Positions 11,310 to 58,557 of a stretch of DNA of 64,000 nt are shown here, piece by piece (the stretch's first letter is position 1; each line of letters starts with the position of its first letter). A model generated the notes under the pieces. It had not been told where the DNA came from, searched no databases, and was given only the letters and a program-made list of their open reading frames with translations. The translations under genes and the position numbers were made by a program. The stretch is from Capsulimonadaceae bacterium (GTDB lineage: Bacteria > Armatimonadota > Armatimonadia > Armatimonadales > Capsulimonadaceae): the NCBI GenBank assembly GCA_965215505.1, contig OZ244065.1, positions 4,192,001-4,256,000 of the forward strand, given 5' to 3'.

Positions 11310-11349
11310 TTCTCCGAAAAATGATGCGCCGAAAAAGCCCGGCGCAATG

Positions 11350-11378
11350 TTGACAAAGAGAAAGGTGAGGGGTACACT
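11350..11378 (+). promoter_or_regulatory. Sigma70-type promoter upstream of the GH38/GH92 operon
   Basis: TTGACA (11350-11355), 17-bp spacer, TACACT (11373-11378). Confidence 0.7.
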
Positions 11379-11386
11379 GCAAATGC

Positions 11387-11400
11387 CCATACCGGTATGG
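11387..11400. promoter_or_regulatory. Candidate LacI-family operator
   Basis: Perfect 14-bp palindrome CCATACCGGTATGG with central CG, just downstream of the -10 box and next to a LacI gene. Confidence 0.6.
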
Positions 11401-15816: not shown

Positions 15817-15880
15817 GTCGGGCGCGATCCAGGCTTCGGCCTTTCAGATACTTTCGCCACCAAGGGAGGCGACAAGAACG

Positions 15881-18195: not shown

Positions 18196-18870
18196 ATGAC
18201 GACACTGACCAATGAACAGATGCGCCATTACGAAGAACAGGGCTATGTCCTGGTCTCCGGCCTGGTTCCCGAACCGCTCGCGCAGGAGGCCGCCGCCGCT
18301 CTGTGGCGGCTGCTGGACGCCGACCCGGCCCGGCCCGACACCTGGGCCGCCATCTCCGGGGCGCACCAGACCTACCCCGACCCGGCGCTGCTGGCCTGCT
18401 ACACGCCCGCCCTGCTCGCCGCCGCCGCCGAAATCGCCGACGACCCCGTCGAAACGATCACGGTTCCTGACAGAGCCTACACGATCAACGTCTTCCCCCG
18501 GCCCGGCGCCGTCTGGGAGTGGCCGCACCCGCACATCGACCACGCGATCCGCGCAGACGGCTATCACGTCTTCCCACGGGCCTTCCGGGTCGCCGGGATG
18601 ACGTTCCTCAACGACGTCCCGCCGCACGGCGCGGGGACGGTCCTCTGGCCCGGCTCCCACCGGAAGTTGGCGGACTTGGCCCGCAGCGACCCGGAGCGTT
18701 ACGAGATGATGTGGGCGCTCAACAAGGACCTGGGCCGCGTGGACCTGGGCGAGCCGGTGGAGCTCACGCCCCGCTGCGGCGACGTGCTGCTCTACCACTA
18801 CCTCTGCGCCCACGCCGGCAGCAGCAACACCAGTTCCCAGCCCCGCCTGGCCCTCAACATCAAGTGGTGA
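18196..18870 (+). CDS. Phytanoyl-CoA dioxygenase (PhyH)-family Fe(II)/2OG dioxygenase
   Basis: LT.EQ...Y.EQGY start, HxD (HID), GT.LWPGSH, GDVLL.H...H and terminal R.AL. Confidence 0.85.
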   Translation: MTTLTNEQMRHYEEQGYVLVSGLVPEPLAQEAAAALWRLLDADPARPDTWAAISGAHQTYPDPALLACYTPALLAAAAEIADDPVETITVPDRAYTINVFPRPGAVWEWPHPHIDHAIRADGYHVFPRAFRVAGMTFLNDVPPHGAGTVLWPGSHRKLADLARSDPERYEMMWALNKDLGRVDLGEPVELTPRCGDVLLYHYLCAHAGSSNTSSQPRLALNIKW

Positions 18871-18872
18871 TC

Positions 18873-19670
18873 ATGACGGCACAGCAGATTGTTGATCGCA
18901 TCAAAGATCAGTTCGGCGCGGACTGGCAGGAGGCGTCCCGCGACGGCTTCAGCGCCGGTCTGCCGGAGACGCCCGTCACCGGCATCGTCACGTCCTACAC
19001 TCCCTCGCTGGAAGTGCTGAGGCGAGCCGTGGTCGCCGGAAAGAACATGGTCATCACCCAGCAGCCGGGGTTCTATCAGGAGGACCGGGACTGTCTCAAG
19101 AACGACCCGGCCTATCTCGTCAAGCGGGACTTTATTGACAAAAACGCCCTGGTCCTCTGGCGGTTCCGCGACAACTGGAACGCCAGGAAAGGGAACGGCC
19201 AGGCGCGTGGGCTGGCCCACGCGCTCGGCTGGGACGCCTCCGCCGGGCGCGACCCCGGCGCGGACAGGGAGCATCGCTGTTTCCGCCTCCCGGAACGGTC
19301 TCTCGGCGAGTGGGTCACCGAAATCAAGGACAGGCTGGGCGTTCGGGCGCTTCGGGTGATCGGCGACCCGCAGACAAAAATCAGCAAGGCGTCTTTGTCG
19401 CACGGGATGTTCCAGTTCTCCGAACTGCGGGAAATCCTGAAAGACCCGGACGTCACCTTGATCGTGATCGCGGAGGCCATCGAGTGGGAAAGCTGCGAGT
19501 ATTTCCGCGACTTGCTGACGTGGCGCGGGGCAGACAAAGCCATGATCCTTCTAGGACGGGAAGCTTCGGAAGACCCCGGCTACCGCGAGGCCGCGTCTTG
19601 GCTGCGGACCTTCCTACCCGAAGTCGCCATCGAGTGGATCCCCGCCGGAGAACCCTTTTGGATACCCTGA
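18873..19670 (+). CDS. Nif3-like (NIF3/YbgI) protein, degenerate metal ligands
   Basis: DGFSAG.PETPVTGIVTS...NMVIT, WES.EY.RD and C-terminal IPAGEPFW. The His ligands are replaced. Confidence 0.75.
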   Translation: MTAQQIVDRIKDQFGADWQEASRDGFSAGLPETPVTGIVTSYTPSLEVLRRAVVAGKNMVITQQPGFYQEDRDCLKNDPAYLVKRDFIDKNALVLWRFRDNWNARKGNGQARGLAHALGWDASAGRDPGADREHRCFRLPERSLGEWVTEIKDRLGVRALRVIGDPQTKISKASLSHGMFQFSELREILKDPDVTLIVIAEAIEWESCEYFRDLLTWRGADKAMILLGREASEDPGYREAASWLRTFLPEVAIEWIPAGEPFWIP

Positions 19671-19672
19671 CC

Positions 19673-20494
19673 ATGACCACTTCAGAACGCGGACGTTCAG
19701 AGCGCGGCCGGATCGCCGCCGGGGAAATAATCGCGCGGATCCAGAACGCGGTCGGCGTCCCCTGGCGGGAGCCGACCGTGGATACGATCAAAGGTGGCAG
19801 CGCCGACACCGTCGTCACGGGGATCGCGACGACGTTCCTGGCAACGCTGGACGTCCTCCAGAAGACTGCCCAAGCGGGCGGGAACTTCGTCGTCACGCAC
19901 GAGCCGACGTTTTGGAACAATTTGGACCGGGACGACGGGCTGACGGAGGATGCTTTGTATCGCCATAAACGCGACTTCATCCGTGATCACGCTCTGGTCG
20001 TCTGGAGGTTTCACGACCACTGGCACGCCCGCCGGCCGGACGGCATCTGGGAGGGATTCCACCGGGAGCTTGGCTGGGATCAATACCCGTTTGACGAGTC
20101 TCGCGGCGTGTTTGAACTCCCCCGGACCGTGACGCTGGAAGCCTTCGCGCGGGGCGTCAAAGACCGGCTGCAAAGCGACAGCGTCCGCGTCGTCGGGAAC
20201 CCCCGGCTGCCAGTAAACACGGTCCGCCGAGGCTCCAACAAGCTGTCCGGGAGCGTCGCCCTTCTTCCTAGCGCGGACGCCTTCGTCATCATGGAGGCCG
20301 ACCGCGAGAACGATCTGGTAGAGTGGTGCCGGGATGCGGCGCTTTCGGGCCAGGAAAAAGGGTTCGTTTTTATTTCCCACAACCGGGCCGAAGAGTCGGG
20401 GATGGAGAACTGTGCAAAATGGCTCCGCACATTCATTCCCGAAGTGCCTGTGGAGTTTATCCCGTCCGGCGACCCGTTCTGGCGAACGACCTGA
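19673..20494 (+). CDS. Nif3-like dinuclear metal-centre protein
   Basis: DTIKGG...VTGIATT, VTHEPTFW, WRFHDHWH, SHNRAEESGM and IPSGDPFW. Confidence 0.82.
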   Translation: MTTSERGRSERGRIAAGEIIARIQNAVGVPWREPTVDTIKGGSADTVVTGIATTFLATLDVLQKTAQAGGNFVVTHEPTFWNNLDRDDGLTEDALYRHKRDFIRDHALVVWRFHDHWHARRPDGIWEGFHRELGWDQYPFDESRGVFELPRTVTLEAFARGVKDRLQSDSVRVVGNPRLPVNTVRRGSNKLSGSVALLPSADAFVIMEADRENDLVEWCRDAALSGQEKGFVFISHNRAEESGMENCAKWLRTFIPEVPVEFIPSGDPFWRTT

Positions 20495-27345: not shown

Positions 27346-28983
27346 ATGAAAGTCGAACCCATGAAGATCAAAGGCGCGATCCTCTACACCCGTGTGAGTA
27401 CCGGCGACCAAGACAAGAACGGGACGAGCCCGGAGACTCAGCTCGCCTCTTGCCGGGACAAGGCCCTGACCCTGAGCCTGCCCATTATCGCTGAGTATCA
27501 CGACGGCGGCATCAGTGGGGGCTACCTGCTGACGCGCCCCGGGATGCAGACCGCCCTCGCCGACATCCTGGCGGGGCGGGCCGACACGCTCATCTGTGCC
27601 AACATCAGCCGCTACAGCCGCGACGTGGAACACCAGCAGGCCATCAAGAAGGCCGTCCGTGCCGCCGGAGGCCGCATCGTCTTCTGCGACATGGACTTCG
27701 ACGACACGCCCGAAGGGAACCTGGCCCTCGGCATCATGGGCGGCTTCGCGCAGTACGAGAGGGCCGTCATCAAGGACCGGACCATGAAGGGCAAGCGCAA
27801 GCGGGCGGAGGAGGGGCAGCAGCCCCAGCACAGCACCCCGGCCTACGGCTACCACATCGTCACCAACGCCCAGGTGGAATGCGGCCTCTACCCGCCCGAG
27901 ATGCGGGGGCGTTACGTCGTCATTGAAGAGGAGGCCGCGGTCGTGCGGGAGCTGTTCGCCGCCTACGCCGCCGGGGGCGTCGGATGCGCGCCGCTCGCCC
28001 AGCGGCTGAACGCCCGGCGCGTCCCCGCCTCACGGGGCGGCCTCCGGCACCCCGTCTGCGTGTCCATCATCCTCCGGAACCCCGTCTACAAAGGACAGCC
28101 CGCCTACGGGCGCGTCGCCCGCGCCCTCGGCGAGCCGGGGCCGGACGACCGCAACCAGCTGACCGGGCGGCCCCTGCTGCGCCCCCGCGCCGTCGAAACG
28201 CCGGGCAAGCAGCCCGTCGCCCTGTCGGCTCCCCCGCTCGTTTCGGCGGAGCTGTGGGAAGCGGCGCAGGCCCGGCTCGCCGAAAACCGGGGGCGGCTCG
28301 TCGGCAGCCTCAAACAGGCACGGATGCTCACCGGCCGGGTGGAATGCCCCTGCGGCCACCGCGCCGCCATCGTCGGCGGCCGGGGCAAGAAAGCCTACCA
28401 ATGCTTCGCCGAACAGCAGAGCCGGTTCTTGCGCGGGACCTCGGCTTGCAGCGCCGCCACCTATTCCCTGCCCCGGACGGAGCAGAGCGTCATCCGCTCC
28501 CTCCAGAACGCCGCCGAACATCCCGAAGCCATCGCCGCCGCCGTGCAGGCCTATCAGTAGCCGGAAGCCGGCACGCAAAACAACGCGGACGCCGCCGACC
28601 TGCGCCGGGAACTCGCCGCCATGGACGCCGCCGCCGCCCAGATCAAGCAGGAAGAGGCCGCCGCCGTGCAGGCGCAGATCTCCGGGATTTAGGCCGGAGC
28701 CAGCCCGGACGCTTACGCCGCCGTGTTCGCCGGCCTCGCCGCCCGCCGCAAAGGCCTGGAAGACCGGCGCAGGACTGTCGCGCGGAGCCTGGGAACCCAA
28801 AGCCAGAAAAAAGGCGGGCTGACGATATCAGCCCGCCGGGACGATGCCGGACTGGCCCAACAGGCCCTCCGGGACATGGCCCGCGTCCTCTCGTCCGACG
28901 CCGTGCCCGGACGGGAGAAGCGCGACCTCGTCGGCCGCATCATCGCCCGGGTCGTGTGCCGGCCGGACGGGGCCGACGTCTAA
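27346..28983 (+). pseudogene. Large serine recombinase (resolvase, recombinase, Zn-ribbon and coiled-coil domains) with in-frame stops
   Basis: YTRVST catalytic Ser, SRYSR, AYGY, ILRNPVYKG, PPLVSAELWE.AQ and LTGRVECPCG. The coiled-coil continues in frame past TAG 28558-28560 and TAG 28690-28692 to EKRDLVGRIIARVV. Confidence 0.85.
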
Positions 28984-32923: not shown

Positions 32924-34030
32924 TCAAGGTTTCACGATCCTTCGCAGCAGCGACGCCCAATGGACGCCGTAAAGGGTGAGGAACGTCAGCGCATAGTGCG
33001 CGGCGTTGCCGGCCGTCGGGCGGGGCTGGCCCGGCGTCCACTGTGTCGGGCGTGGGACTTCCGGCGGGTCGAACCGGTCAAAGTAGTGATGGCTGATGAG
33101 CCATTGGCGCGACGGGAAGACGATGCGCCACAGGGCATGGGCGCGGGCCTGGGGGCTTCCGAGCAGGTGCCAGAGCAGCGGGAGACGCAGGCGCTCGGTC
33201 CGGGCGGCGGCGACGTCCTCGATGCTGTCGGCGGCGCGCGCCTCGCTGATCCGCTCCAGGCGAGCGCGCCCGGCGCGTGGCGCGAGCGAATCCAGAACTT
33301 CGAGCGGGACGGGCGTTCCCAACAGCCGCGCCGCCGCGAACAGGGCGGCGAAGCAGGCCGTGGATGCCCCCGCCGATCCGGCGATGCGGACGAACAGCGG
33401 CCAGTCCACTGTGCTGACCGAGCAGACCTGTGCGATGTCGCGCAAGGACTGCGAGGCGGCCAGGGAGTGCCCCGCTAGGTGCAGGCAGAGGTGAAGTATC
33501 TGGTCTTCCGTCCCGAGTACCCGCCCGTCCGTTCCCGCCAGACGCGCCGGCCGGGCGCGGTCCCACAGGCCCGCGTCATCAACGTGGAACTTGCCGAAGA
33601 AGAGGTCGTTATTGATCAGCTCGGTGTGCAGCTCGACCACTATAGGGCCACGCTCCGTGTGGTTGAAAAAGTTGGCCTGACAGTCGCGGCCCCGGATGAC
33701 CTCCTCCCATTGCAGGGGATCAACGACATACCCCAGCGAATCCAGCAGCGTCCGGGCGCGGGCGGCGTCTTCTGGGCGCACCAGCACGTCCAGGTCTCCG
33801 AACCGGCGCAGGCTGGGGCGCGGGTAGACCGTCTCGGCCAGCGCCGCCCCCTTGAGGACGAGCAGGTCCAGTTTTGCCTCGGTGCAGAGACTCAGCAGAG
33901 CGGCCAGGTGCGGGCGGAAGAAAGCGAACTGGACGAGGGCCGCGACTTCCTCCAGCGCCTCTCCTTCGGGGAGGCGCTGGGCGAAGGGAAACTCCGTTCC
34001 TGTTTGGCTTGCATCAAGGGTGAGAAACAT
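32924..34030 (-). CDS. Nucleotidyltransferase family protein (type found in lasso-peptide/PqqD neighbourhoods)
   Basis: LKGAALAETVYP....R.FGDLDVLV, VELH, HLCLH and LRDI. Start position uncertain. Confidence 0.85.
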   Translation of the reverse strand: MFLTLDASQTGTEFPFAQRLPEGEALEEVAALVQFAFFRPHLAALLSLCTEAKLDLLVLKGAALAETVYPRPSLRRFGDLDVLVRPEDAARARTLLDSLGYVVDPLQWEEVIRGRDCQANFFNHTERGPIVVELHTELINNDLFFGKFHVDDAGLWDRARPARLAGTDGRVLGTEDQILHLCLHLAGHSLAASQSLRDIAQVCSVSTVDWPLFVRIAGSAGASTACFAALFAAARLLGTPVPLEVLDSLAPRAGRARLERISEARAADSIEDVAAARTERLRLPLLWHLLGSPQARAHALWRIVFPSRQWLISHHYFDRFDPPEVPRPTQWTPGQPRPTAGNAAHYALTFLTLYGVHWASLLRRIVKP

Positions 34031-34045
34031 AAAAACCCGAGAAGG

Positions 34046-34085
34046 CCCGCCGACCTTCCCCGAAAGATGAGGAAAGTCGGCAGGC
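34046..34085 (-). terminator. Stem-loop between the 34152-34916 gene and the nucleotidyltransferase
   Basis: Imperfect inverted repeat CCCGCCGACCTT...AAGTCGGCAGG, followed on the minus strand by a pyrimidine/T-rich tract. Confidence 0.4.
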
Positions 34086-34151
34086 CGCCGATTTGCGCTC
34101 CTTAGGTGAGTGCAAAAGCCTGGTTCCCGCGAACCACTTCAGCCCTGTCCT

Positions 34152-34916
34152 CTACCTGCCGGTCCGATCCACGCATTTGCCGCGCGGGCCTGGGAGGAAG
34201 CCGGCGCAGCAGGGGAGCGAGTTGTTGATGTAATTGTAGGTCTGCCCATGCGCGGCACAGGGGAGGGACACACTCGCCGGACCGACATAGAAATCGTTGC
34301 TGTTGATCCCCGTCGCCGGTGAAGAAGTGCTGCTGATGGTGGCCCGCGTGATTAGGTTGTTCACGTTCGTCTGCGCCCCGACAAAAACTGCGGTCCCGGC
34401 GGATGAGGTGTTGTCCGTCGGCCCGAAGGTGAAACTGCCTAGCGAGGTGTTCCCGTTGAAGACGGTCAGCGTGAAGGTTTCCGTGTCCGCATTGAAGTCC
34501 TGGGCGAATAGCCCGAACCCGGTGACACCGTTCTGGAAGCTGATCTGGAGAGGCCCCGTGGCCGTGGGGCTGACGGAGCCGTTGAAGAGTTCTTCCAACA
34601 CGTTCCCCGACCCGAACTGCGGGCCGACCGTCAAGTCAGAGGTGTAGCTCTGAAACCCGCCGCCCGGTGTACCGTTCGTTGCCGAATAGGTCAGGGTGTT
34701 GGTGCCCGCTGTCACTGTGAACGAGGACGGTCCGCTCGCGCCGCTCCCGGAGGTAGTGGGGTAGGGGGCCGTCTGGACAGGGCTGAACAATTGGCTTGGG
34801 CTGGTCACTATCGTGGCCTGCCCCTGTACCGCACGCCAGCCCAGGGTCGCGAAGGTGCAGAGCGCGAGCGCAGTCCATAAGGAGCTGTTGAGGCGGTTTT
34901 TGTGATGGTTGTTCAT
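34152..34916 (-). CDS. Secreted beta-rich protein (paralogue of the PEP-CTERM protein at 35877-36704) ending in a 4-Cys tail instead of an anchor
   Basis: Signal peptide. Shares GPLQI.F.NGV..FGLF.Q, FVGAQ, NLITR and DFY.GP with the PEP-CTERM protein. Tail is CAAHGQT...PCC.G..PGPRGKCVDRTGR. Confidence 0.8.
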   Translation of the reverse strand: MNNHHKNRLNSSLWTALALCTFATLGWRAVQGQATIVTSPSQLFSPVQTAPYPTTSGSGASGPSSFTVTAGTNTLTYSATNGTPGGGFQSYTSDLTVGPQFGSGNVLEELFNGSVSPTATGPLQISFQNGVTGFGLFAQDFNADTETFTLTVFNGNTSLGSFTFGPTDNTSSAGTAVFVGAQTNVNNLITRATISSTSSPATGINSNDFYVGPASVSLPCAAHGQTYNYINNSLPCCAGFLPGPRGKCVDRTGR

Positions 34917-35242
34917 GGTAATCCTTTCGAGCCAGTGCTGTTGCCTCCACTCAAGCTCCTTCGTCTCGTTTCAGTGCCGGGCTTCCACCCCGCCGTTGTC
35001 TCGCTGCCCAATCAGGACTTCATAACTTTCCTGCCATTGTACCCGATTCGTTCGCGATTTTTCTTTCACTACGCGGCGGACCCAGCCAGACGGAGGAAGA
35101 CTGAATCCGGAGGAAGATTGAGTCAGGAGGAAAACTAAATCAGGAGGAATGCGTCATGCAGGCAGGTGACGGAGTAGTAACCAGAGGCGGCCTGCCGCTT
35201 GCTCCCGGAGGCAGGGCAAATGCAACAGGCCGTCAGAACTTG

Positions 35243-35279
35243 AAAAGCCGGGGCGGCATCCCGTAAAACCGCCCCCGGC
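35243..35279 (-). terminator. Rho-independent terminator after the PqqD-fusion gene
   Basis: Minus strand reads GCCGGGGGCGG-loop-CCGCCCCGGC followed by TTTT. Confidence 0.55.
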
Positions 35280-35327
35280 AGATATGCCTCGGGAGTATGC
35301 TTACATGGCTCGGGAGTATGCTTGGGG

Positions 35328-35843
35328 TCAGCGTCCAGTCCGGTCAACACATTTGCCGCGTGGTCCGGGGGAATATCCTGAGCAGCAGGGACGTATGGTG
35401 CCTGTTGCCAGGCCGGTGTAGTCAAAGGTCTGCCCGTGTCCAGCACATCTAGTAGACGCCGCCATCGCGGGCGTCGGGGCGACCATGCTCTGGACCACCG
35501 GCAAGAGGAGGGACACACCGCCGACCAAGGCCGCCTTCTGAAGTACCTGTCTTCGCGTGACTCGTCTGGCCTCTTCCGCTCGTACCAGCGGGATTTGCAG
35601 CAGGTGTTCTTTTCCCAAACGGTCCAGCGCAAGCCAGACCATGTCCTCGGTCACCGGTGTTGCCATCTCGCCTTGCAGGGTTTCCACAAGAGCGGCCACC
35701 GTATGCCGGCCATCGCAGTGACGCCAGACCATCGCAGCGGTCCGGTTCAGACGGTGAACATGGTCACGCTGCTCATCATAAATGATGGTTTCATCACCGA
35801 TCTCCTGGACGACAAGGCGGTCCGCTCGTGCTTGTGGTTTCAT
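35328..35843 (-). CDS. PqqD/RRE-domain protein fused to an internal Tat signal and a Cys-rich C-terminal peptide (putative RiPP precursor-RRE fusion)
   Basis: Residues 1-85 show a PqqD fold (E.IIYD....H.LN.TAA.VW..CDG..TV). TRRQVL at 96-101 is followed by a hydrophobic stretch and AMA-AS, then a ~42-aa 4-Cys peptide. Confidence 0.8.
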   Translation of the reverse strand: MKPQARADRLVVQEIGDETIIYDEQRDHVHRLNRTAAMVWRHCDGRHTVAALVETLQGEMATPVTEDMVWLALDRLGKEHLLQIPLVRAEEARRVTRRQVLQKAALVGGVSLLLPVVQSMVAPTPAMAASTRCAGHGQTFDYTGLATGTIRPCCSGYSPGPRGKCVDRTGR

Positions 35844-35876
35844 TGCTTTCCTATCTCAGCACTTTCCAAATGTCGG

Positions 35877-36704
35877 CTAGCCGGCGGCCTTCTGCGCGGA
35901 CTGTCGGCCGGCGTTCACCTTACGCCGGCGCGCGGAAAGGACGACGCCGGCGAACAGCAGCGTTCCCATGCCGAAGCCCACGACGGTCGAAGCCTCCGGG
36001 ACTGGAGCCGTGAACTGGTAGCTGATGGGGCCGAAGTAGAAGTCGCCTGTCGCGGTGGTGTTGGACATGTCCGTCAGGACGACCCTGGTGATCAGGTTCC
36101 CCGCCAGGGCTTGGGCGCCGACGAACGTCGCGTTGCCCCCTTGAGTCGGCCCGGAACCGGACGTGTTGAGTACGTCCAGAGTAGAGAAACTGCCGAGTGG
36201 GATGGTGCCGTTGGGGCCGCCAAAGACGGAAAAGTTGAAGTGGTATGTGTCTGTACCAGCGGACTGTCCGAAAAGGCCGAATTCATTGACGCCATTGCTG
36301 AAGTCAATCTGGAGAGGCCCAGTCGGAGGCGCGGTCGCTTTAGACGTGTTAAAGTCGAAGGTTTCGATCAGATGTGTCGCGTAAGGAAAAGCATTCGTGT
36401 CGAGCGCCGGCAGGTTCGTGATCGGGTTGGGTTGGTTGACGAAGGTGTCGAAGGCGGTGGCACTCGCCGGCTCAGTCTGCGATGTGAACGTCACCCCCGT
36501 TCCGGGAGAATTCAGCAAGTAGCCAGAAGGGAGCGTCCCGTTGGTGGTGTCAAACTGCGGCGTCATGCTCGCCCCCGGCCCCAGCTGGGATGGCATCGTG
36601 AGCTGGGTCGCCAGTTGTGCCTGGGCCGCCCGTCCGCCTAGGGCTGTGAGGGCGCAGAGCGTGACGGCGGCGGCGAGTTGCTTGCTGTGATCGTATTTGT
36701 GCAT
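35877..36704 (-). CDS. PEP-CTERM sorting-domain surface protein
   Basis: Signal peptide ending AQA; C-terminal PVPEAST, TM helix and ARRRK. Confidence 0.88.
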   Translation of the reverse strand: MHKYDHSKQLAAAVTLCALTALGGRAAQAQLATQLTMPSQLGPGASMTPQFDTTNGTLPSGYLLNSPGTGVTFTSQTEPASATAFDTFVNQPNPITNLPALDTNAFPYATHLIETFDFNTSKATAPPTGPLQIDFSNGVNEFGLFGQSAGTDTYHFNFSVFGGPNGTIPLGSFSTLDVLNTSGSGPTQGGNATFVGAQALAGNLITRVVLTDMSNTTATGDFYFGPISYQFTAPVPEASTVVGFGMGTLLFAGVVLSARRRKVNAGRQSAQKAAG

Positions 36705-36901
36705 GGTAGTTTCTTTCAAAAGTCTTTATGGTCTACGCCCACGCCTCCAGGGGCGCGAGTGGCTGCGGGTAAACCCATGCACCATCGGCTGCACGGGTGA
36801 GAAAACGGGCAGCGCCCGAAAACTGTTATCGCTTGGGAAGCCTTCTTCACAGGTTTCGTTGCGCGGCGTCGCGGGATGTCCCCGAACGTGGGCAAAATTC
36901 T

Positions 36902-37828
36902 TTAGCGCTCTGGCCCGTCCCCGCCGGCCTCTTCCCCACATAAGCGTTCCCGCAGCCAGGCGACAACCCGGTCGGCCTCGCCCCGCTTGCTCTGGAACGC
37001 CTCGGCACCGAGGGCCGCTCTCTGAAGAATCTGCATCGCCGCCTGCGGCTGCCGGCGGACCTGGACGGTGTTGTCCAGCAGTGTCAGCATCGCCCGGCCC
37101 GGCGATTGGGGCCGGGGCCGCCAGCGCGCGCCCGCCTCGTACCGGGCCGCGAGGATCATCCCGACCGGCAGCGGCCCGGTCGCGGCCCGCCCGCCCAATG
37201 CCTCGACGGGGACCGTCTCGCCCGGCCCGCCTTCCGCGTCCCGGAGTGACAGGGGCCGGGCGTAAGGGTGGACATGGCCGCCCTCGTCGAAGACCGCATA
37301 CTCGTCGGAGAAGTATGTCGCCCCCGCCGCCGCCAGGGCCGCCACCAGGCTACTCTTCCCGCTGAAGGTACGCCCCGGAATGACCACGGCTTTCCCGCCC
37401 CACCCGACGACGCCGGCGTGGACGAAGAGACGGTCCCGCGCCTGCTCCGCCACCTGCCCGTGCAGGCCGGAGGTCAGCGCCTGGATGGCCTCGTCCGCCC
37501 TGCGCGTGTGCGCCACCCGGCAGGTCCCCCGGTACAAAAAATAGTGCGGCTCGGGATGCGCCCGCGACCGGCTCTCCACCACGGCCAGCGAGAACAGGCC
37601 GTCCACGGTCGGTGTGGGGGCAGGCTCCGCGCCGGGCGGCAGGTGATCCGTCAGACGATCGAGCAGCGCGGCGTCCGTGGCGCGGACGCCGATCCGGGCA
37701 CCGTGACTGACGAAGGCCAGCCCGGCCGCCCAGCGGAACCTCTCCAGAGCCTTCCAGCAGGGGGAGGAAGCGTCGGGCGGCTGTTCCAGCGTCGGCAGCC
37801 GCGCCCCATCTCTTTGCTCGACCGTCAC
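36902..37828 (-). CDS. HprK-related P-loop Ser/Thr kinase
   Basis: FVHAGVV, Walker A GRTFSGKSS, YFSDEYA and PY.RPL. Confidence 0.85.
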   Translation of the reverse strand: MTVEQRDGARLPTLEQPPDASSPCWKALERFRWAAGLAFVSHGARIGVRATDAALLDRLTDHLPPGAEPAPTPTVDGLFSLAVVESRSRAHPEPHYFLYRGTCRVAHTRRADEAIQALTSGLHGQVAEQARDRLFVHAGVVGWGGKAVVIPGRTFSGKSSLVAALAAAGATYFSDEYAVFDEGGHVHPYARPLSLRDAEGGPGETVPVEALGGRAATGPLPVGMILAARYEAGARWRPRPQSPGRAMLTLLDNTVQVRRQPQAAMQILQRAALGAEAFQSKRGEADRVVAWLRERLCGEEAGGDGPER

Positions 37829-38132: not shown

Positions 38133-39944
38133 ATGCCTAGACAGCCTTATCCCCACACGCGAACACCCACGGAGGCCCGGCGAACTGGGCAGCGGCGACG
38201 CTCGGCGGGCGGAGGGTCCTCTGCGGGGAGCTGGCTCGCCGATCATGCCCTCCTCGTCTGCCTCTCCGGCCTCCTCGTCCTCGCCTTCCTGGCCGAGATG
38301 CCCTGGCTGTCCCGGCCCCTGCGGTCCCACCTGCTGCAAGCTGCCGTTGTCCTGATCTATACCCTGATCGCCGCCGCAGGCCCCGCCTCGGGCCGGGTGA
38401 CCCGTGACTCCCTGCGCGGCCCCTCCCTCTGGCTGCTCGGGCTGCTGGCCTGGAGCGGCCTGAGCGCCGCCCTCGCGCCGTACCCCGCCTTTGCCGCCTC
38501 CGAGCTGCTGCGGCTCGCCCTGGGCGCGGGCGTCTACTTCGTGGCGGCCCACGTCCTGCGGCCCCACGAGGCGCGGCTCCTCCCCCTCTTCCTGCTCGGC
38601 CTGGGCGCGGCCGTCGGCCTGTACGGCCTGATTGAATTCGGGGCGGAAGGCAACTTCGGCACCGGGGCGATCCACAGCGTCTTCGGCAACCACGAGCAGC
38701 TCGGATCGTTCCTCGTCCTCCTGCTGCCGCTCGGGCTGGCGCTCGCCCTGGACCGCAGCGAGGGGTTAAAGAAGCGCCTGCTGTTCGCGCAGGGCGCGGC
38801 CCTGGTCATCGGCGCGGCCCTGCTGCTGGCGCGCACCCGCTCCGCCTGGCTCGGGGCGACGGCCGGGCTTGTCCTGCTGGCCTTCCTGACATTGCGCTAT
38901 TCGTCCATCCGGCTGACCCGCAGCAACCGCGCCCTCGTCATCGGCCCGGCGCTGATTCTGGTGCTGGCCTTCACGGGCCTGCTCGTCTTCGGCGAACTCG
39001 CCCCGCTCGTCTCGCACCGGGCAGCGACCCTGGCGCACGCGGGCGATGACACTTCCCTCGCCGACCGCCTGCACCGCTGGCGGTCGGCCTGCCGGATGGC
39101 CTCCGAAAAGCCGGTCACCGGCTGGGGCCTGGGCGCGTGGCCGGTCATGCAGGGGCGCTGGACGCACCAGGGCGACGACGTCAGCGAGGTGCTGGGGGCG
39201 GGTACGGGCCATTCCAACCTCGCCCACAACTTCTGGGCGCAGTGGGCCGCCGAGACGGGCGGGGTCGGCCTGGCCCTCCATCTCGGCGTCCTGGCCGCTT
39301 TCCTGCTGGCGGGCCTGCGCGCGCTGCCCCGACTGGACCGGGAGCGGCGGACTTTGCTCCTAGGCTGCCTCGCCGCCGCCGCAGCGGGCGGCGTGGACAT
39401 GGCCGGTGCCCCCTCCTACACCTTCCCCGGCGTCTCCTCCCTGTTCTGGGTCACGCTGGGCCTGGGCGTCGCCCTGCTGCCCGGACCCGGCGGGGCGCGG
39501 GCGACGCGCCGTTTCGACTGGCTGATTCCCCTGAGCGCTGGACTCGCCGCCGCCCTGGCCGTTGTGGGCATCGGCGACAGGCTCCGCGCGGACGGGCGGG
39601 CGGCCCCGCGCGGGACCCTGACCGTGACCGCCCAGCCGCCCGGCCCGGTCGCGCCCGGAACGCGTGTCCTGTGGACCGCCACCTACCATGCCCCCGACGG
39701 CACGGCCCGCCCGACCGCGCCAGGCACCGTCTGGAAGGTCACGGAAGGCGGCCTGACGAAGACCAGCCCGACCTTCCTGTTCCTGAACCGGGAACCCCAG
39801 CGCTCCGGCTGGCAGGGCAACATCGCCCCCGGTGTGAGCCGGGTGACAGTAACGGCGTACTACTGGGACCAGTTCAGCCGCCCCTACCAAGTTTCTTTGC
39901 CTGTGGCCGTCAAAACTGTCAAAAACCCTGTTGCAAATCCGTAA
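38133..39944 (+). CDS. O-antigen ligase-like (Wzy_C) membrane protein with C-terminal soluble domain
   Basis: SVFGN, TRSAWLG, R...W......EKP.TGWGLG and AHN.W.Q..AETG.VG. TATACT lies 8 nt upstream of the ATG. Confidence 0.85.
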   Translation: MPRQPYPHTRTPTEARRTGQRRRSAGGGSSAGSWLADHALLVCLSGLLVLAFLAEMPWLSRPLRSHLLQAAVVLIYTLIAAAGPASGRVTRDSLRGPSLWLLGLLAWSGLSAALAPYPAFAASELLRLALGAGVYFVAAHVLRPHEARLLPLFLLGLGAAVGLYGLIEFGAEGNFGTGAIHSVFGNHEQLGSFLVLLLPLGLALALDRSEGLKKRLLFAQGAALVIGAALLLARTRSAWLGATAGLVLLAFLTLRYSSIRLTRSNRALVIGPALILVLAFTGLLVFGELAPLVSHRAATLAHAGDDTSLADRLHRWRSACRMASEKPVTGWGLGAWPVMQGRWTHQGDDVSEVLGAGTGHSNLAHNFWAQWAAETGGVGLALHLGVLAAFLLAGLRALPRLDRERRTLLLGCLAAAAAGGVDMAGAPSYTFPGVSSLFWVTLGLGVALLPGPGGARATRRFDWLIPLSAGLAAALAVVGIGDRLRADGRAAPRGTLTVTAQPPGPVAPGTRVLWTATYHAPDGTARPTAPGTVWKVTEGGLTKTSPTFLFLNREPQRSGWQGNIAPGVSRVTVTAYYWDQFSRPYQVSLPVAVKTVKNPVANP

Positions 39945-48202: not shown

Positions 48203-49411
48203 CTAAAGATGGCAATTTGTCTGCCCCACGGCACTGAGACACTCCTGCCCCACGGCACTGAGACACTCCTGCATCACCGCCTCGACGGCATCCATCCGTG
48301 ACCCCCAGGAGTGCCGCTGCGCCTCCGCCCGCCGGTCCTCTTGTCCGGTCTGTCCTGCGGCAAGCGCCGCCTCACACGCCGCCAGGAACGTCTCGCTGGT
48401 GGCAGCAAGGCGGACGAACTGCGGGTAGTCGCGGAAGCCGGCGACGTCCGTGCTGACGATGGGTTTGCCCCCGGCCAGGTACTCCCAGAGCTTGATCGGG
48501 TTCAGGCTCTCGGTGAACGGCGTCATCCGGTGCGGGGTGATGCAGACGTCGAAGGCGCGCATGTAGTCCGGCACTTCGGCATAGGGGACGGGGCCGGTGA
48601 TCTGGACGTTCCCAACCGCCCTCAGCCGGGCCTCATCGGCGGCGGGCAGATGGTTCGGCCCCACCAGGGCGACCGTGCCGCGCGCGAACCTCCGGGCCAG
48701 TGCCTCGATAAGCCCCACGTCCACGCGGTCGGGGTGGATGGTGCCGGTATAACCCAGCACGGGTTTGGCCCAATGCGCGGCGGTCGGCGGCAGCGGCAGC
48801 GCGGCATCCTGAACGCGCTCATAGTGTGCGGCGTCCACGCCGTTCGGGATCAAGTATAGATTGGGCGTCAGGCCCCGCTTCATGTCGTAGAGCTTCTGGG
48901 AGCAGACGATGACCGCATCCGCCCGGCGGCACAAGGCTTCGTCCTGGGCGGCGGTCAGACGCCGCAGCCAGTCCTTCTGCGTCAGGCTGATCCAGTCGTC
49001 GGTGATGTCGTAGACGACCGCCCGCTCGCCCATCCGCCCGGCCATGTGGACGGCGGAATGCGGGTTGAGCCAGAGCAGGGGCCGCGTGATCCCCAGCGCC
49101 CGTGCCGCCTGCCGCACCTGATGCCGCATCAGCGCTTCGTTGGCCCGCCGCCCCCAGGCGAGCGTGTTGGGGAACACCTTCAGCGGGCGCAAGAGTGTGA
49201 CGTTCGGGTACTCCGGCACGGCCACCAGCGGCGCGGCCCGCAGCGCCCCCAAACGCCCGCGCCGCAGGCCGTGGGAGACGTCGCGCGCCAGCCCGACGAA
49301 CAGTATCTTGTGGTCAGGGTGTCGCCGGGCCAGCCCCGCGCAGAGGAACTGGTTGCGCCGCCAGACCTCATCCCAATCTTCCAGGGAGACGAAAATCAGG
49401 TTAAACATCAT
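48203..49411 (-). CDS. Glycosyltransferase (GT4, TuaH-like)
   Basis: W..VWRRNQ, VYDITDDW, PNGVD and PIKLWEYLA.GKP. Confidence 0.87.
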   Translation of the reverse strand: MMFNLIFVSLEDWDEVWRRNQFLCAGLARRHPDHKILFVGLARDVSHGLRRGRLGALRAAPLVAVPEYPNVTLLRPLKVFPNTLAWGRRANEALMRHQVRQAARALGITRPLLWLNPHSAVHMAGRMGERAVVYDITDDWISLTQKDWLRRLTAAQDEALCRRADAVIVCSQKLYDMKRGLTPNLYLIPNGVDAAHYERVQDAALPLPPTAAHWAKPVLGYTGTIHPDRVDVGLIEALARRFARGTVALVGPNHLPAADEARLRAVGNVQITGPVPYAEVPDYMRAFDVCITPHRMTPFTESLNPIKLWEYLAGGKPIVSTDVAGFRDYPQFVRLAATSETFLAACEAALAAGQTGQEDRRAEAQRHSWGSRMDAVEAVMQECLSAVGQECLSAVGQTNCHL

Positions 49412-50682
49412 ACAGTTGACGCCAAAACAGGATCAAGACCGACAGGGCTTGGGCTTCCCGTTCGTCGGCTCGGCAATAGAACGCCAACCGTCAGCAGGAT
49501 GTAGTCGAGCAGTAAACACAGCGCTTTGAAGTAGGGGGGGTGGAGCCTACCAAAATGATGCAGGACAAGGTCAACGACGTTGTGGGTGTTGCTGCCGATC
49601 GAAGCCAGGGTGACTACCAGGAAAATGGCGAACAATATCCTATACCCTGTCAACTGACGCCTCGCCAGGAAACTCAAAACGAGGACCATGCTGGGCGCAA
49701 GTAAAACCGTGTCATACGTCCGATGATAGAATACGAGCAGCGCCAAGAGCGACAAGGCGCTGATATCGGCCAAACCAAATTGACTCTGCTGCCAACGCCA
49801 CAGAAAGCCGAGGATGAGAACAACGCAGATGGCTGTTTTTACTATCTCAGCGACAACAGGATTGCCTATGTCTGCAATCAAGCATTCAACATCAACACGC
49901 TCTCTGCGTCCCGTGCCATGAACATCATTTTGCGTTCCAGAGGAAAACGACGCCTTGTTGTTTCGCTGATAACTTGATAGAAACTGCCGAGGCCCGATCA
50001 GGGCGGCACCGATGATGTTGACGCCTACATACAGCAGTACGCCGGACGCTATCAGAACCTTGGTCTGTTTTGTGCCCTTGATGAACAGATACAAAAACAA
50101 AGGCAGGCAGAGCGTAAATTTGATGAGAGCGAGTAGCGATGTGAGTGGGCTGAGATGCGGCCTGTCGGACTGCAACAATCTCGCTGTCAGCAAAGTCAGC
50201 GCGATGATAGGTAAAACGATCTGCCCCAAAGAGAATGTTTGCCAAGTCCCCGGCAGAACAGCGATACACAGCGAACTAACCCAGAGCAGCCATAGCGGAG
50301 GCTCGGCGTAGACGTATTTCAGGCAAAGACAAGCGATGAACGGGATGCAGAACGCGCCCGTAATAATCTGGCACCAGCAAAAGACCGGCCACGGCAGTAA
50401 GCTCCATGGGGACAAAAGGACCAACGTTGCGGGTAAATGAATCTGAGGGGATGGAGAGGCTTGTCTTGTGGTTATAAAGTGTGCATATCCTTTTGCCAGC
50501 GATGTATGGTCATAAGGATTTTGGCCTACACGAAACAGCCGGGACCCGACGTAAAGTTGTTGACCATCGCTGTAGAGTGGCCGGATGTCATGGGTGCGGG
50601 TGTGAACGCCAGGCAACAGGAAGCCGAAGACGATACTTAAGAGAATGCCGATGTACACAACGGTCAGCTTAGTTGTCTTCAT
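49408..50682 (-). CDS. GT87-like (DUF2029) polytopic glycosyltransferase
   Basis: GQNPY, P..L...P...LP, GQ, K.T, YH..YD and many TM segments. Confidence 0.65.
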   Translation of the reverse strand: MKTTKLTVVYIGILLSIVFGFLLPGVHTRTHDIRPLYSDGQQLYVGSRLFRVGQNPYDHTSLAKGYAHFITTRQASPSPQIHLPATLVLLSPWSLLPWPVFCWCQIITGAFCIPFIACLCLKYVYAEPPLWLLWVSSLCIAVLPGTWQTFSLGQIVLPIIALTLLTARLLQSDRPHLSPLTSLLALIKFTLCLPLFLYLFIKGTKQTKVLIASGVLLYVGVNIIGAALIGPRQFLSSYQRNNKASFSSGTQNDVHGTGRRERVDVECLIADIGNPVVAEIVKTAICVVLILGFLWRWQQSQFGLADISALSLLALLVFYHRTYDTVLLAPSMVLVLSFLARRQLTGYRILFAIFLVVTLASIGSNTHNVVDLVLHHFGRLHPPYFKALCLLLDYILLTVGVLLPSRRTGSPSPVGLDPVLASTV

Positions 50683-50714
50683 GTTCCAAGGCCTTGACTA
50701 TCACAAAAAACAAA

Positions 50715-50810
50715 TTACGAGAAGCGCCGGGCCAGCCCCGCGCAGAGGAACTGGTCGCGCCGCCAGACCTCATCCCAGTCTTCCGGGGAGACGAAAATGA
50801 TGTCCGGTAA
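50715..50810 (-). pseudogene. 5' fragment duplicate of the TuaH-like GT gene
   Basis: 50725-50798 matches 49323-49396 at 71 of 74 nt and reads IIFVSPEDWDEVWRRDQFLCAGLARRFS*. Confidence 0.8.
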
Positions 50811-50875
50811 TGCTTGCACTAGAAGTTGTTCTTGATCCTCTAACGTCAACCCTCTGCCGGTCCGAGAGGCGCGAC

Positions 50876-51709
50876 TCAGTCGAAAGTTTTCTTTTGCCTA
50901 AACGAAGAGCCTTCATGAACGAATAAAAAGTCAGATTGCCACAATGCATCGTCCAGCGGTCTGCGAATAAAGGAGCAAATATCATACACGACAAAGCCGC
51001 GTTGTTTCATGAAGTTTAGGACTTCATCTACTAATGGAGCACCTCGATTGACTTCAAGGAGAGCCACTTCCATCAGTATCACCTCGACACCTTGCAAGGT
51101 GTTTTGGCTGCCTCTAAGGATCTCTAGTTCGTATCCTTGAACGTCAAGCTTGAGGAAATCAACCTTGCTTGGGATACGCTCTGCAACAATCTCGTCCAGG
51201 GTTCGCATAGCATAGCGCTTGACTTCACGTTGAATGCTGCTTTGTTCCGGCAGTATCGAAGAGCCGGTTTGAAGCTCAAAGAAAGGAACATCGTCTCGTG
51301 CTTCAGGTCCCAAAAGGCTGATTTTATAATCAACTTCACCGTTGTATTGAGCCGATACTGTCTCCAGGATTTGCTCCTTCGCCGGCTGGGCCTCAATCAT
51401 GAGGACAGCAGCGTCCGGGAATATTCCTTTGACCATTTGAGTCCAAGTTCCTTGAAAAGCACCCACATCTACGATATTGGCTGGCCGGAAACCGAGGGCG
51501 CGGAGCCGGCGCAAACTGACCTCGACGGACGCCATTTCATATCGAACACAGATATCGTCCTTGTGTGAAGCAGACATCGCGGACAGGGACGCGCGGAAAA
51601 GAACATCCTTAGCCCATGATGGCACGATTTTTCCCGTGATATGAGCTATTTTTCGTCTCACTGTGTAGTCCTTATCACCGAACAATTGGCGTTGGGTGTC
51701 CACGCGCAT
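50876..51709 (-). CDS. FkbM-family methyltransferase
   Basis: VDVGAFQG, TLD and FLKLDVQGYELEIL.G. Start uncertain. Confidence 0.88.
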   Translation of the reverse strand: MRVDTQRQLFGDKDYTVRRKIAHITGKIVPSWAKDVLFRASLSAMSASHKDDICVRYEMASVEVSLRRLRALGFRPANIVDVGAFQGTWTQMVKGIFPDAAVLMIEAQPAKEQILETVSAQYNGEVDYKISLLGPEARDDVPFFELQTGSSILPEQSSIQREVKRYAMRTLDEIVAERIPSKVDFLKLDVQGYELEILRGSQNTLQGVEVILMEVALLEVNRGAPLVDEVLNFMKQRGFVVYDICSFIRRPLDDALWQSDFLFVHEGSSFRQKKTFD

Positions 51710-55703: not shown

Positions 55704-56650
55704 GTCAGGACGGCCTCCTGGACGCCGTCAATCCCCGCCATGATGCGCGCGAATGCTTCCCTGTCACTGATCTGACGTAAGGGCCTTTCCGCCGCGCGCC
55801 GTGTCTGCATCTGGTGCCTCCGCCCCCAGGCGGCTGCGAACCCTTTCAGGAACGGCGCGTCTCCCTTTGCCGCCGCCCGCGCCAGGCGGAACGGCAGCCA
55901 GGCCAGGTGCTCGCGCCGCATCTGCGGGTCGTCGATGTTCTTCCACTGGAGCAGGAACGTGTTCTGGTCCACGATGGCTCTAAGCTGCTTCTTCTTGTAG
56001 GCCGCGCCGGACGTCTGCCCCCCCAGGTGGTACAGCACGCTGCGCGGCTCATAGAGGATGCGCCAGCCGCGCCGCCAGGCGCGGTAGGATAAATCAATAT
56101 CCTCGTGGTAAAGCGGCCAGAATAACTCATCAAAGCCGCCGAGTTCGAGGTACTTGGACCGCGAGAACGCCGCCTGACCGCCGAGCGCGAAGAAGCAAGT
56201 GGAGGTGCATCCAATGTCGGGGAGCTGGTTGTACCACCACAGGCCCCGGTGGAAGCCGCCCGAGGTGCGCGACCCCTGCGGCGTCACGCGGTCGCCGGTC
56301 AGGACGCGCGTGTTGACGGCGAACACGTCCGGCGTGTGCAGGTGTTCCAGCAGCGGCGGCAGGAAATCCGGCTCGACCAGGATGTCGTTGTTGAGCAGCA
56401 GGACCGCCTCGGTGTCCAGGGTCGGCACGATGTCGTTGTAGGTGAACAGGAAGGCGTTGCGCGGAGCGCGGACGTTCCTAACCCACGGGAACTGATGCTC
56501 GGTGTAGGCGATGCTGTCATCCGTGCTGCCGTTGTCAATCAGGTACACGTCATGGTCGTGGCCGTATCGGGTTGCGGCTCCCAAGGTGCTGAAGCACCCT
56601 TCCAGCAGGCGTAGGCCGTTGTAATTAAGAACAAGGAGACTGGAGCGCAT
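55700..56650 (-). CDS. Glycosyltransferase family 2
   Basis: LNYNG, IDNGSTD, LLNND and GGFDE...YHEDIDLSYR. Confidence 0.9.
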   Translation of the reverse strand: MRSSLLVLNYNGLRLLEGCFSTLGAATRYGHDHDVYLIDNGSTDDSIAYTEHQFPWVRNVRAPRNAFLFTYNDIVPTLDTEAVLLLNNDILVEPDFLPPLLEHLHTPDVFAVNTRVLTGDRVTPQGSRTSGGFHRGLWWYNQLPDIGCTSTCFFALGGQAAFSRSKYLELGGFDELFWPLYHEDIDLSYRAWRRGWRILYEPRSVLYHLGGQTSGAAYKKKQLRAIVDQNTFLLQWKNIDDPQMRREHLAWLPFRLARAAAKGDAPFLKGFAAAWGRRHQMQTRRAAERPLRQISDREAFARIMAGIDGVQEAVLT

Positions 56651-56651
56651 T

Positions 56652-57578: not shown

Positions 57579-57615
57579 CGTCGTACTCGATAGTATGTTG
57601 AGAACAAGAATAATT

Positions 57616-58554: not shown

Positions 58555-58557
58555 GGT

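Follow-up and report, generated by a model that had tools for sequence, protein, structure and literature searches.

A kinase, a PqqD fusion with a signal-like segment and Cys-rich tail, and an NTP_transf_5 enzyme: a candidate cyclase-free RiPP cassette in Armatimonadota and other phyla

We have analyzed 64 kb of DNA from a Capsulimonadaceae bacterium (Armatimonadota), positions 4,192,001 to 4,256,000 of contig OZ244065.1, which is about 6.18 Mb long; this whole stretch is called the window below. It contains a cassette in which an HprK-like serine kinase and an enzyme of the NTP_transf_5 family accompany a fusion protein made up of a PqqD-type recognition element (RRE) for peptides made by the ribosome and modified after translation (RiPPs), a twin-arginine signal-like segment and a four-Cys tail. 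With slightly better than even confidence, we interpret this cassette as a cyclase-free RiPP pathway similar to that by which Bacillota make linear polyphosphorylated peptides, or LPPs (Popov et al., Nat Commun, May 2026; PMC13381572, drawn on here in part), with a precursor that brings along both a recognition element and an export signal. An earlier note, written from the sequence, had described five co-oriented genes in the order kinase, PEP-CTERM protein, PqqD fusion, Cys-tailed paralogue (gene 4 in what follows) and nucleotidyltransferase, and all five are present as minus-strand open reading frames (ORFs) at the coordinates below. The note also described the window as free of lasso cyclases, B2 peptidases, radical SAM enzymes and YcaO; this holds for the 53 distinct ORFs scanned with Pfam, and a tblastn search of the window with the YcaO of a related locus gave no match. 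The features, in window positions, are:

36902-37828, minus strand: HprK-like serine kinase, first gene of the cassette (308 aa; partial match to TIGR04352 HprK_rel_A)
35877-36719, minus strand: PEP-CTERM protein, a secreted beta-sandwich protein and lineage-specific accessory (280 aa; ending in VPEAST, a hydrophobic stretch and RRRK)
35328-35843, minus strand: PqqD fusion protein, whole gene (171 aa; PF05402)
35580-35843, minus strand: fusion residues 1-88, the RRE domain of PqqD / lasso-B1 type (PF05402, AlphaFold2 (AF2), Foldseek)
35460-35558, minus strand: fusion residues 96-128, with the twin-arginine motif, the hydrophobic segment, Pro115 and APTPAMA (AxA); proposed leader and signal peptide
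35331-35459, minus strand: fusion residues 129-171, the proposed core, with Ser130 (candidate phospho-acceptor) and the four-Cys tail
34152-34916, minus strand: gene 4, a Cys-tailed secreted beta-sandwich paralogue of Sec type (254 aa; tail at 34155-34259)
32924-34030, minus strand: enzyme of the NTP_transf_5 family, last gene of the cassette (368 aa; PF14907)
38133-39944, plus strand: Wzy_C / O-antigen-ligase-like membrane protein, divergently transcribed, context only (PF04932, 72.4 bits)

The first line of evidence is gene linkage. Relatives of the fusion are encoded at 353 places in species-representative genomes, the best 80 of which were kept as 78 related loci (numbered with an L below). 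By their labels, 17 of these are of Armatimonadota type, 40 of Acidobacteriota type, 11 of Gemmatimonadota type and 10 of other types, the last including the cultured planctomycete Aquisphaera insulae JC669. Neighbours were counted with profile hidden Markov models in the 45 loci where the fusion gene is flanked by 5 kb or more on each side: within 5 kb the kinase gene was present in 38 of the 45, the NTP_transf_5 gene in 37 and both in 37, with L070 as the locus having the kinase only. Since the trio recurs in 37 of the 45 full-flank loci, the arrangement is far beyond chance, and the co-occurrence check proposed in the earlier note, which asked whether homologous fusions lack the kinase and nucleotidyltransferase, brought no refutation. 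The commonest order is kinase, fusion and NTP_transf_5 on one strand, reversed in three loci, and when the 900 ORFs lying up to 7 kb from the fusion gene were clustered, the next commonest family was found in at most 22 loci. Several loci (e.g. L025 and L065) contain two or three tandem fusion genes with differing tails, and orphan fusion copies occur elsewhere in genomes that hold the cassette; the assemblies of the kinase-less loci L044 and L073 likewise hold the cassette-gene loci L048 and L026, respectively.

The fusion belongs to a large family. A word-indexed search returned 185 homologues of nearly equal length, the most specific name among them being 'PqqD family protein', and the closest relatives (P0001 and P0002) are 89% and 85% identical to it; a targeted search for shorter forms gave 1 protein among 2 candidates. 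In a profile search of 1.84 billion cluster representatives, 10,922 were retrieved at E<=1e-3, 5,940 at 1e-10 and 2,055 at 1e-30. The tree of the cassette kinases tracks phyla, with 8 label changes, where 4 is the minimum and shuffling gives a mean of 27.3, and the window kinase is placed inside an Armatimonadota clade with 100/100 support, beside that of L003 (80% identity).

The two enzymes look active as far as their motifs indicate, because the P-loop Lys and the S-D-E triad of the kinase and the DxD motif of the NTP_transf_5 enzyme are invariant. The window kinase had no Pfam match, and on the NCBIfam model TIGR04352 it scored 72.4 bits (E 3.2e-20) versus a curated cut-off of 200, over residues 111-197 only; its profile gave a marginal match in the PDB to HprK/P (1ko7) across the P-loop, with an E value of 0.88. 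H137, G157-K158 (the P-loop) and S174-D175-E176 are conserved without exception in 52 cassette kinases. The NTP_transf_5 enzyme matches PF14907 with 132.8 bits and found no match in a sequence search of the PDB; R75, D79 and D81 (DxD) are invariant in 45/45 cassette homologues, as counted in alignment columns. For enzymes of these two kinds the available parts of the literature on lasso peptides describe HprK-like kinases that phosphorylate the C-terminal Ser of paeninodin-type precursors, and PsmN, a nucleotidyltransferase needed for the addition of one or two hexoses to the phosphate of the lasso phospho-Ser (PMC6993621, PMC8498205) and inactive as the D134A/D136A variant (PMC6993621).

The fusion itself matches PF05402 (38.3 bits versus a cut-off of 23.4, residues 18-63), and a PqqD domain is present in all 94 aligned family members. 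In the AF2 model, obtained with a 94-sequence input and having a mean predicted local distance difference test score (pLDDT) of 83.2, residues 1-88 form a confident winged-helix RRE of three strands followed by three helices (pLDDT 89-95), after which come a helix at 97-106, a strand at 117-121 and then the tail. The best Foldseek match of the RRE was the lasso B1 protein TbiB1 (5v1v; TM-score on the target 0.75, probability 1.00), followed by TfuB1 (6jx3), and a PDB search with the fusion profile gave marginal matches only, to PqqD and TfuB1 (E 0.25-0.42). One residue of the RRE, N33, is invariant (94/94).

Behind the RRE there is a segment that resembles a signal for twin-arginine translocation (Tat), the consensus of which is S/T-R-R-x-hydrophobic-hydrophobic-K/R, with a moderately hydrophobic stretch and an AxA site. 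Over residues 96-130, the number of the 94 members with the given residue is 92 for T/S96, 94 each for R97 and R98, 91 for R/K102, 94 for P115, 94 for V/I117, 88 for S119, 90 for A122, 94 for P123, 93 for A126, 88 for A128 and 88 for S/T130, and the 15 residues from P115 to position 130 are free of gaps in every member. Mean pairwise identity is 0.54 in the RRE, 0.28 in the linker, 0.60 in this RR-signal segment and 0.29 in the tail (0.22 when Cys residues are left out). That the RR-signal segment is the best conserved part, unlike a plain signal peptide, suggests a second role for it as a recognition sequence.

An RR...AxA pattern could be recognised in 193 of 210 sequences, and in these the part that follows the AxA site was studied. 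These tails are 8-103 residues long (median 37), and they contain 4 Cys in 120 cases, 6 in 36, 8 in 14 and 10 in 15, that is, an even number in 185/193, which fits with disulfide pairs. Position +2 after the AxA is occupied by Ser in 149 tails and by Thr in 18, and the C-terminal residue is Ser in 8. A wider sample of 147 representatives showed the pattern in 116, among which 109 have an even number of Cys and 85 have S/T at +2; this sample also includes non-Cys cargo, for example the His/Asp-rich tail of P0189 and, in P0225, a domain of 188 residues. Six Cys are present in many acidobacterial tails, in a spacing similar to that of the inhibitor cystine knot, which is defined by six Cys in a C-C-CC-C-C pattern and by knotted disulfides, and in a Pfam scan of the 94 members PF11703 (UPF0506) was matched in 4 and the spider-toxin family Toxin_29 in 1. 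The window tail (AF2 pLDDT 76-91 over residues 131-170) does not fit this definition, as it has four Cys rather than six, and its Foldseek matches to spider toxins are weak (E 1.5-1.6).

Variant cassettes exist as well. A YcaO gene immediately follows the fusion gene in two loci, L036 (Binatia) and L063 (Aquisphaera); there the tail of the fusion is short and rich in Gly, Ser and Cys, and L063 also contains a ThiF-like gene and a ThcOx-like oxidase gene. The hybrid cluster (L063 5427-15403, from the cultured Aquisphaera insulae JC669, and L036 8994-15202) has the order ThiF-like, sigma-54 activator, kinase, fusion, YcaO, ThcOx-like oxidase and NTP_transf_5, and has the appearance of an azole-type RiPP cluster that uses the same self-chaperoned head; the position of YcaO indicates that this head serves another well-known RiPP chemistry. 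In three Blastocatellia loci a gene for a MauE-thioredoxin/AhpC fusion lies inside the cassette (L042 7433-8977, L054 7357-8916, L078 8321-9868), which fits with disulfide formation outside the cytoplasm, and in L042 and L054 the fusion tails are long, with 10 Cys. The leader/core pattern, the tandem and orphan copies and the variants with YcaO and azoline oxidase all agree with the earlier proposal that the peptide behind the RRE is the substrate. The part of it that placed the acceptor among the Ser/Thr/Tyr residues of the Cys core has to be revised, as the near-invariant Ser two residues after the AxA is the likelier site.

There is another explanation, according to which the kinase and the NTP_transf_5 enzyme tailor a lasso peptide, or some other RiPP, encoded elsewhere in the genome, with the fusion acting as a membrane-anchored, B1-like chaperone. 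The nearest solved folds of the RRE are indeed lasso B1 proteins, lasso peptides are known to be tailored by HprK-like kinases and by nucleotidyltransferases of this family (PMC6993621, PMC8498205), and the window covers 64 kb of a contig of about 6.18 Mb. Still, this is very improbable in our opinion: neither a lasso cyclase nor a B2 peptidase was found among the 53 window ORFs, in the families common to at least 4 related loci or in the 16 fully scanned loci, and the sole Asn_synthase match, in L029, also gives strong matches to glutamine-amidotransferase domains and adjoins a GT4 glycosyltransferase gene, as expected of a polysaccharide locus. Moreover, in the published work on lasso kinases, as far as it is covered here, the target is the C-terminal Ser, and 8 of the 193 tails end with this residue.

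The signal-like segment can also be read in a different way, with the fusion as a permanent, uncleaved single-pass membrane protein in which a cytoplasmic RRE or adaptor is joined to a small extracytoplasmic Cys-rich domain. Such an adaptor would link the kinase and the NTP_transf_5 enzyme to polysaccharide export, or sense the outside, and the substrate would be another protein or a glycan intermediate. The segment is anchor-like in hydropathy, the mean over residues 105-122 being 1.91 versus 2.03 for the helix of the PEP-CTERM protein, it sits after a folded domain of 88 residues, the cassette is often found within polysaccharide loci, and some members have extended C-terminal parts of a non-Cys kind, up to 188 aa long. 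We nonetheless regard it as unlikely that the fusion stays in the membrane, because the AxA is kept at a fixed distance across phyla (A126 in 93/94, A128 in 88/94), hypervariable outer parts along with tandem and orphan copies are more typical of precursors than of adaptors, and the variants with YcaO and oxidase suggest that enzymes act on the tail; in addition, the spacing between Pro and Ser equals that of LPP precursors in the available description (PMC13381572).

In the LPP-like RiPP pathway that we favour, the RRE (residues 1-88) would bind the leader around Pro115-x-Val117 and the strand 116-121, either in cis or between copies, and Ser130 would thereby be offered to the HprK-like kinase and phosphorylated, perhaps several times. 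The NTP_transf_5 enzyme would then decorate the phosphate, with a hexose if the analogy to PsmN applies. The twin-arginine motif and the hydrophobic segment (96-122) would take the C-terminal part over the inner membrane, where the general signal peptidase I could cut after the AxA at 126-128 and free a peptide of about 43 residues, whose four Cys would form two disulfides outside the cytoplasm. Neither a dedicated leader peptidase nor a dedicated exporter would be required.

A number of observations weigh against this pathway. Phosphorylation of Ser130, decoration by the NTP_transf_5 enzyme, use of the Tat route, cleavage at Ala128 and the disulfides are steps that we infer. A signal peptide that begins at residue 96, after a folded domain, is unusual; on residues 95-122 the fusion scores 16.5 with TIGR01409 (TAT_signal), versus a cut-off of 16.7, and the AF2 pLDDT over residues 91-130 is as low as 55-69. 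Disulfide-rich cargo is commoner for Sec than for Tat, and the conservation of the +2 Ser and of APTPAMA could derive from a signal-peptidase or membrane role alone. With respect to linkage, neither enzyme is encoded near the fusion in 7 of the 45 full-flank loci, and the choice of the best 80 of 353 places biases the sample toward relatives of the window. In comparison with curated families, the cassette kinases of six other loci score 50.7-63.1 bits with TIGR04352, so that all seven lie between 50.7 and 72.4 versus the cut-off of 200, and the PqqD parts of the fusions reach at most 20.5 bits with TIGR04353, the cut-off of which is 35. As for LPPs, the likeness to LppK, LppB and LppN rests on published descriptions rather than on sequence alignment; the aromatic residue (Y/W) of lasso and LPP leaders is Leu or a gap here, and the rest of the published LPP leader motif, YxxPxVLxHQxIxFETxxS, is absent (PMC13381572). 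LppN was moreover inactive in the published heterologous host, according to the part of that paper used here, so that any role given to the third enzyme is tentative for LPPs too (PMC13381572).

The two remaining genes of the window cluster are accessory. The PEP-CTERM protein scores 16.5 bits with PF07589, under the cut-off of 20.7, although the ending of VPEAST, helix and RRRK is visible, and its Atlas neighbours include a cluster with PEP-CTERM in 98% of the members. A PEP-CTERM-like gene lies between the kinase and fusion genes in 16 of the 78 loci, 15 labelled Armatimonadota and one (L012) Janthinobacterium, which together constitute the window's own clade, and the Cys-tailed paralogue was found in 1 of the 78. 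The earlier note had included the pair in the conserved system, and these counts do not bear this out: both proteins are accessories specific to Armatimonadota.

The position of these genes brings in a further alternative, in which the RRE, the kinase and the NTP_transf_5 enzyme phospho-glycosylate the PEP-CTERM protein, or other exosortase cargo, prior to sorting, and the Cys tail is an alternative tag for sorting or anchoring. In each of the 16 loci of the clade, which has 100/100 support in the kinase tree, the PEP-CTERM-like gene separates the kinase gene from the fusion gene; in 3 of these 16 loci genes for the exosortase EpsH and a peptidyl-prolyl isomerase are located downstream, the exosortase gene being 1.5-2 kb away; and the Cys tail of gene 4 occupies the exact position of the PEP-CTERM end. 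On the other hand, the trio is kept without a PEP-CTERM-like gene in 62 of the 78 loci, including L017 and L018 of Armatimonadota, no exosortase was found in the window, and the PEP-CTERM protein has a normal N-terminal signal peptide, with which it would presumably leave the compartment of the kinase unfolded via Sec. All this makes the PEP-CTERM protein quite improbable as the intended substrate.

Gene 4 is a paralogue of the PEP-CTERM protein (36% identity over 232 columns, E 2e-21) in which the PEP-CTERM end has been replaced by the genome's own four-Cys tail: its last 35 residues are like the fusion tail at 24 of 39 positions (E 3e-15), and at the DNA level 34159-34259 and 35335-35447 are repeats with 74-75% identity. 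The AF2 model of the protein (pLDDT 80.5) contains a beta-sandwich at residues 34-217, with weak Foldseek matches to BtuJ1/DUF4465 and to carbohydrate-binding modules. It has eight orthologues with Cys tails, and among 22 other matches those inspected end in a PEP-CTERM-like manner. Tails of gene 4 and the fusion resemble each other within a genome, at 25 of 38 positions in the window and 23 of 37 in L003 (fusion and gene-4 pair region at 10001-10498 and 10778-11545), whereas between the window and L003 the tails are alike at 11-18 of 37-38 positions and the protein bodies are 73-75% identical. When compared with 120 fusion tails, the gene-4 tail had its presumed cognate as best match in P0125/P0038, P0128/P0022 and P0129/P0010; the cognate was tied best in L003, second in P0130/P0034 and third in the window. 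Judged from these alignments, the likeness of tails within a genome looks like concerted evolution or co-selection. Gene 4 has no RRE, RR segment or AxA-x-Ser and therefore cannot be a substrate in the same way as the fusion. The Cys tail common to both suggests that the secreted beta-sandwich protein and the peptide, once released, have one partner in common, located at the cell surface or within the polysaccharide layer. As a separate observation, the 411 bp that separate the fusion gene from gene 4 contain three tandem units of 17 nt (35091-35141) and two units of about 20 nt (35284-35323), with nothing detected there by Rfam.

The surroundings of the cassette are rich in polysaccharide genes. 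The Wzy_C-like gene at 38133 opens a locus of about 26 kb that extends to 64 kb and encodes Wzy_C-type proteins, many glycosyltransferases and an ABC-2 transporter; the opposite flank of the five genes contains a permease, an amidohydrolase and glycoside hydrolases. In the related loci, genes for polysaccharide functions (Wzy_C, GT4, WbaP-like, Wzz/GNVR, epimerase) are frequent but not constant neighbours, Wzy_C being near the cassette in L005, L049 and L055, for example. This setting allows a more speculative proposal, in which the phospho-sugar on Ser130 would serve, at the membrane surface, as an acceptor for glycan building or ligation by the neighbouring Wzy_C/O-antigen-ligase-like machinery and glycosyltransferases. 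The result would be an exopolysaccharide primed or capped by a peptide, with the tail as a strain-specific address that docks the gene-4 protein to the polymer. We regard this as a long shot; if true, it would represent a proteoglycan-like bacterial surface system begun by a RiPP-type pathway.

Other observations made in the related loci and in the window are recorded here. In L012, labelled as a metagenome-assembled genome of Janthinobacterium lividum, the cassette and the PEP-CTERM-like gene nest, judged by the kinase tree, in the Armatimonadota clade with 100/99 support, a placement that may result from mis-binning or transfer. In Longimicrobiales and other Gemmatimonadota (L024, L025, L035, L045-L047) the cassette is located between rpoC and rpsL-rpsG-fusA, and a 383-aa protein with a weak CxxCxxCC domain match is encoded in 4 of these 6 loci (L025, L046, L047 and, with weaker evidence, L045). 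Very large Peptidase_C25 / PorU-like proteins are encoded next to the fusion gene in 14 loci, nearly all acidobacterial and some of them kinase-less (examples are L051 6680-9931 and L052 13154-16798); the idea that large neighbours in acidobacterial loci also end in the local Cys tail was dropped, as they have no such tail. In L017 (Armatimonadota) a gene for an NAGPA phosphodiester glycosidase (6146-7711), an enzyme class that cuts sugar-phosphate diesters, lies 1.4 kb upstream of the kinase gene.

In the window, Rfam gave a single match between 32 and 39 kb, under the gathering score (E 0.91), a scan for promoters and terminators found no more sites than in shuffled sequence, and PADLOC gave no match for the five proteins and hence no sign of a known defence system. 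Two low-GC islands inside the polysaccharide locus (49400-51700 and 56600-60400; GC 0.47-0.52 vs about 0.65) encode a GT87, an FkbM methyltransferase, three GT2 genes and a GT10-like gene, and their composition suggests that these are acquired genes for glycan diversity. Farther away, in the regions 15749-18056 and 18519-20494, a GH92 gene is apparently split over two overlapping frames, one with the N-domain and the start of the catalytic domain and the other with catalytic positions 135-461, and a NIF3/DUF34 gene is likewise matched by two ORFs that overlap; frameshifts or errors in sequencing may be the cause. A serine recombinase is encoded at 27346-28560.

If the pathway proposed here is true, a recognition element can be part of the RiPP precursor itself, the work of a dedicated leader peptidase and exporter can be done by a twin-arginine or general signal peptide, and the LPP chemistry of Bacillota has a much larger sister group in soil phyla that are hard to culture. 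The tails would then constitute a large natural library of small, disulfide-rich and partly knottin-like bacterial peptides with a built-in tag for modification and export, and the fusion head could be used as a portable tag for the phosphorylation and secretion of cargo peptides. The recurrent setting in polysaccharide loci, which LPPs share in the description available (PMC13381572), would make a role in capsules or biofilms directly testable.

With regard to known systems, bufferins are RiPP precursors that use general-secretion signal peptides, and actinobacterial Rieske proteins have internal Tat signals in multi-domain proteins. As in the pathway proposed here, housekeeping machinery takes over export and the removal of the leader, and a twin-arginine segment functions away from the N-terminus. 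To our knowledge, neither of them unites an RRE placed before the signal with a kinase and a nucleotidyltransferase. HPr, kinase and nucleotidyltransferase are unmentioned in the RRE-Finder paper, and no paper was found on an RRE-precursor fusion with a signal segment in the literature consulted, although the supplementary tables of Popov et al. may list fused forms or matches outside Bacillota (PMC13381572). The HPr-rel-A system (TIGR04352/TIGR04353) also pairs a kinase distantly related to HprK with a peptide chaperone of the PqqD family, but its curated models describe no fusion with a signal segment and cargo, and the scores below both cut-offs indicate that the cassette is a sister of this system and not a member of it. 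Lasso pathways of the paeninodin and pseudomycoidin type, as far as they are described in the sources used, have in common with the cassette the HprK-like kinase, a nucleotidyltransferase of the NTP-transferase family and the B1 fold of the RRE (PMC6993621, PMC8498205). They differ in that no macrolactam synthetase or B2 peptidase is encoded among the window ORFs or in the related loci examined, in that their kinases target a C-terminal Ser, with which tails rarely end here (8/193), and in that the cassette would give a linear product with disulfide bonds, exported by means of a signal peptide.

The closest experimental precedent is provided by LPPs, and it strengthens the earlier suggestion of a cyclase-free RiPP made with a kinase, an RRE and an NTP transferase (PMC13381572). 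The novelty of the cassette is lower than had been assumed there, because LPPs were published in May 2026. In the parts of that paper on which this comparison is based (PMC13381572), LPP clusters are cyclase-free, are often located within capsule loci and consist of a precursor (LppA), the HprK-like kinase LppK, the discrete RRE LppB, LppS, which is a leader peptidase similar to archaeal-type signal peptidase I, the MsbA-like exporter LppD and an NTP transferase. LppK adds several phosphates to Ser3 of the core; the LppA leader binds LppB through Y-16, P-13 and V-11 together with the strand from -12 to -7, and N33 of LppB fixes the Pro kink of the leader. Cleavage by LppS largely needs prior phosphorylation, the unphosphorylated precursor being poorly cleaved. 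The authors call LPPs restricted to Bacillota.

The cassette departs from this scheme in several aspects, again with reference to the published description (PMC13381572). Its RRE is fused to the presumed precursor rather than discrete like LppB, and LppS- and LppD-like genes are replaced by the twin-arginine hydrophobic segment and the AxA: no such gene was found among the 53 window ORFs, the families present in at least 4 loci or the 16 fully scanned loci, and the ABC-2 pair at 60-64 kb is part of the polysaccharide locus. The tails are mostly small, with even Cys counts, and the hosts are diderm (Armatimonadota, Acidobacteriota, Gemmatimonadota and others), in contrast to Bacillota. Both systems nonetheless combine, without a cyclase, an HprK-like kinase, an RRE and an uncharacterised NTP transferase, and in both the N-terminal part of the precursor is conserved and the C-terminal part highly variable. 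In LPPs a Pro is located 15 residues before the (phospho-)Ser, exactly the distance from P115 to S/T130 in the 94 fusions; V/I117 corresponds to V-11 and the strand predicted at 117-121 to the leader strand bound in LPPs, and N33 of the RRE is invariant. Finally, in both cases the acceptor Ser (in the cassette, the candidate Ser130) is near the known or proposed cleavage site, the leader is removed by an activity of the signal-peptidase-I type (in the cassette, presumably), and the genes are embedded in polysaccharide loci (PMC13381572).

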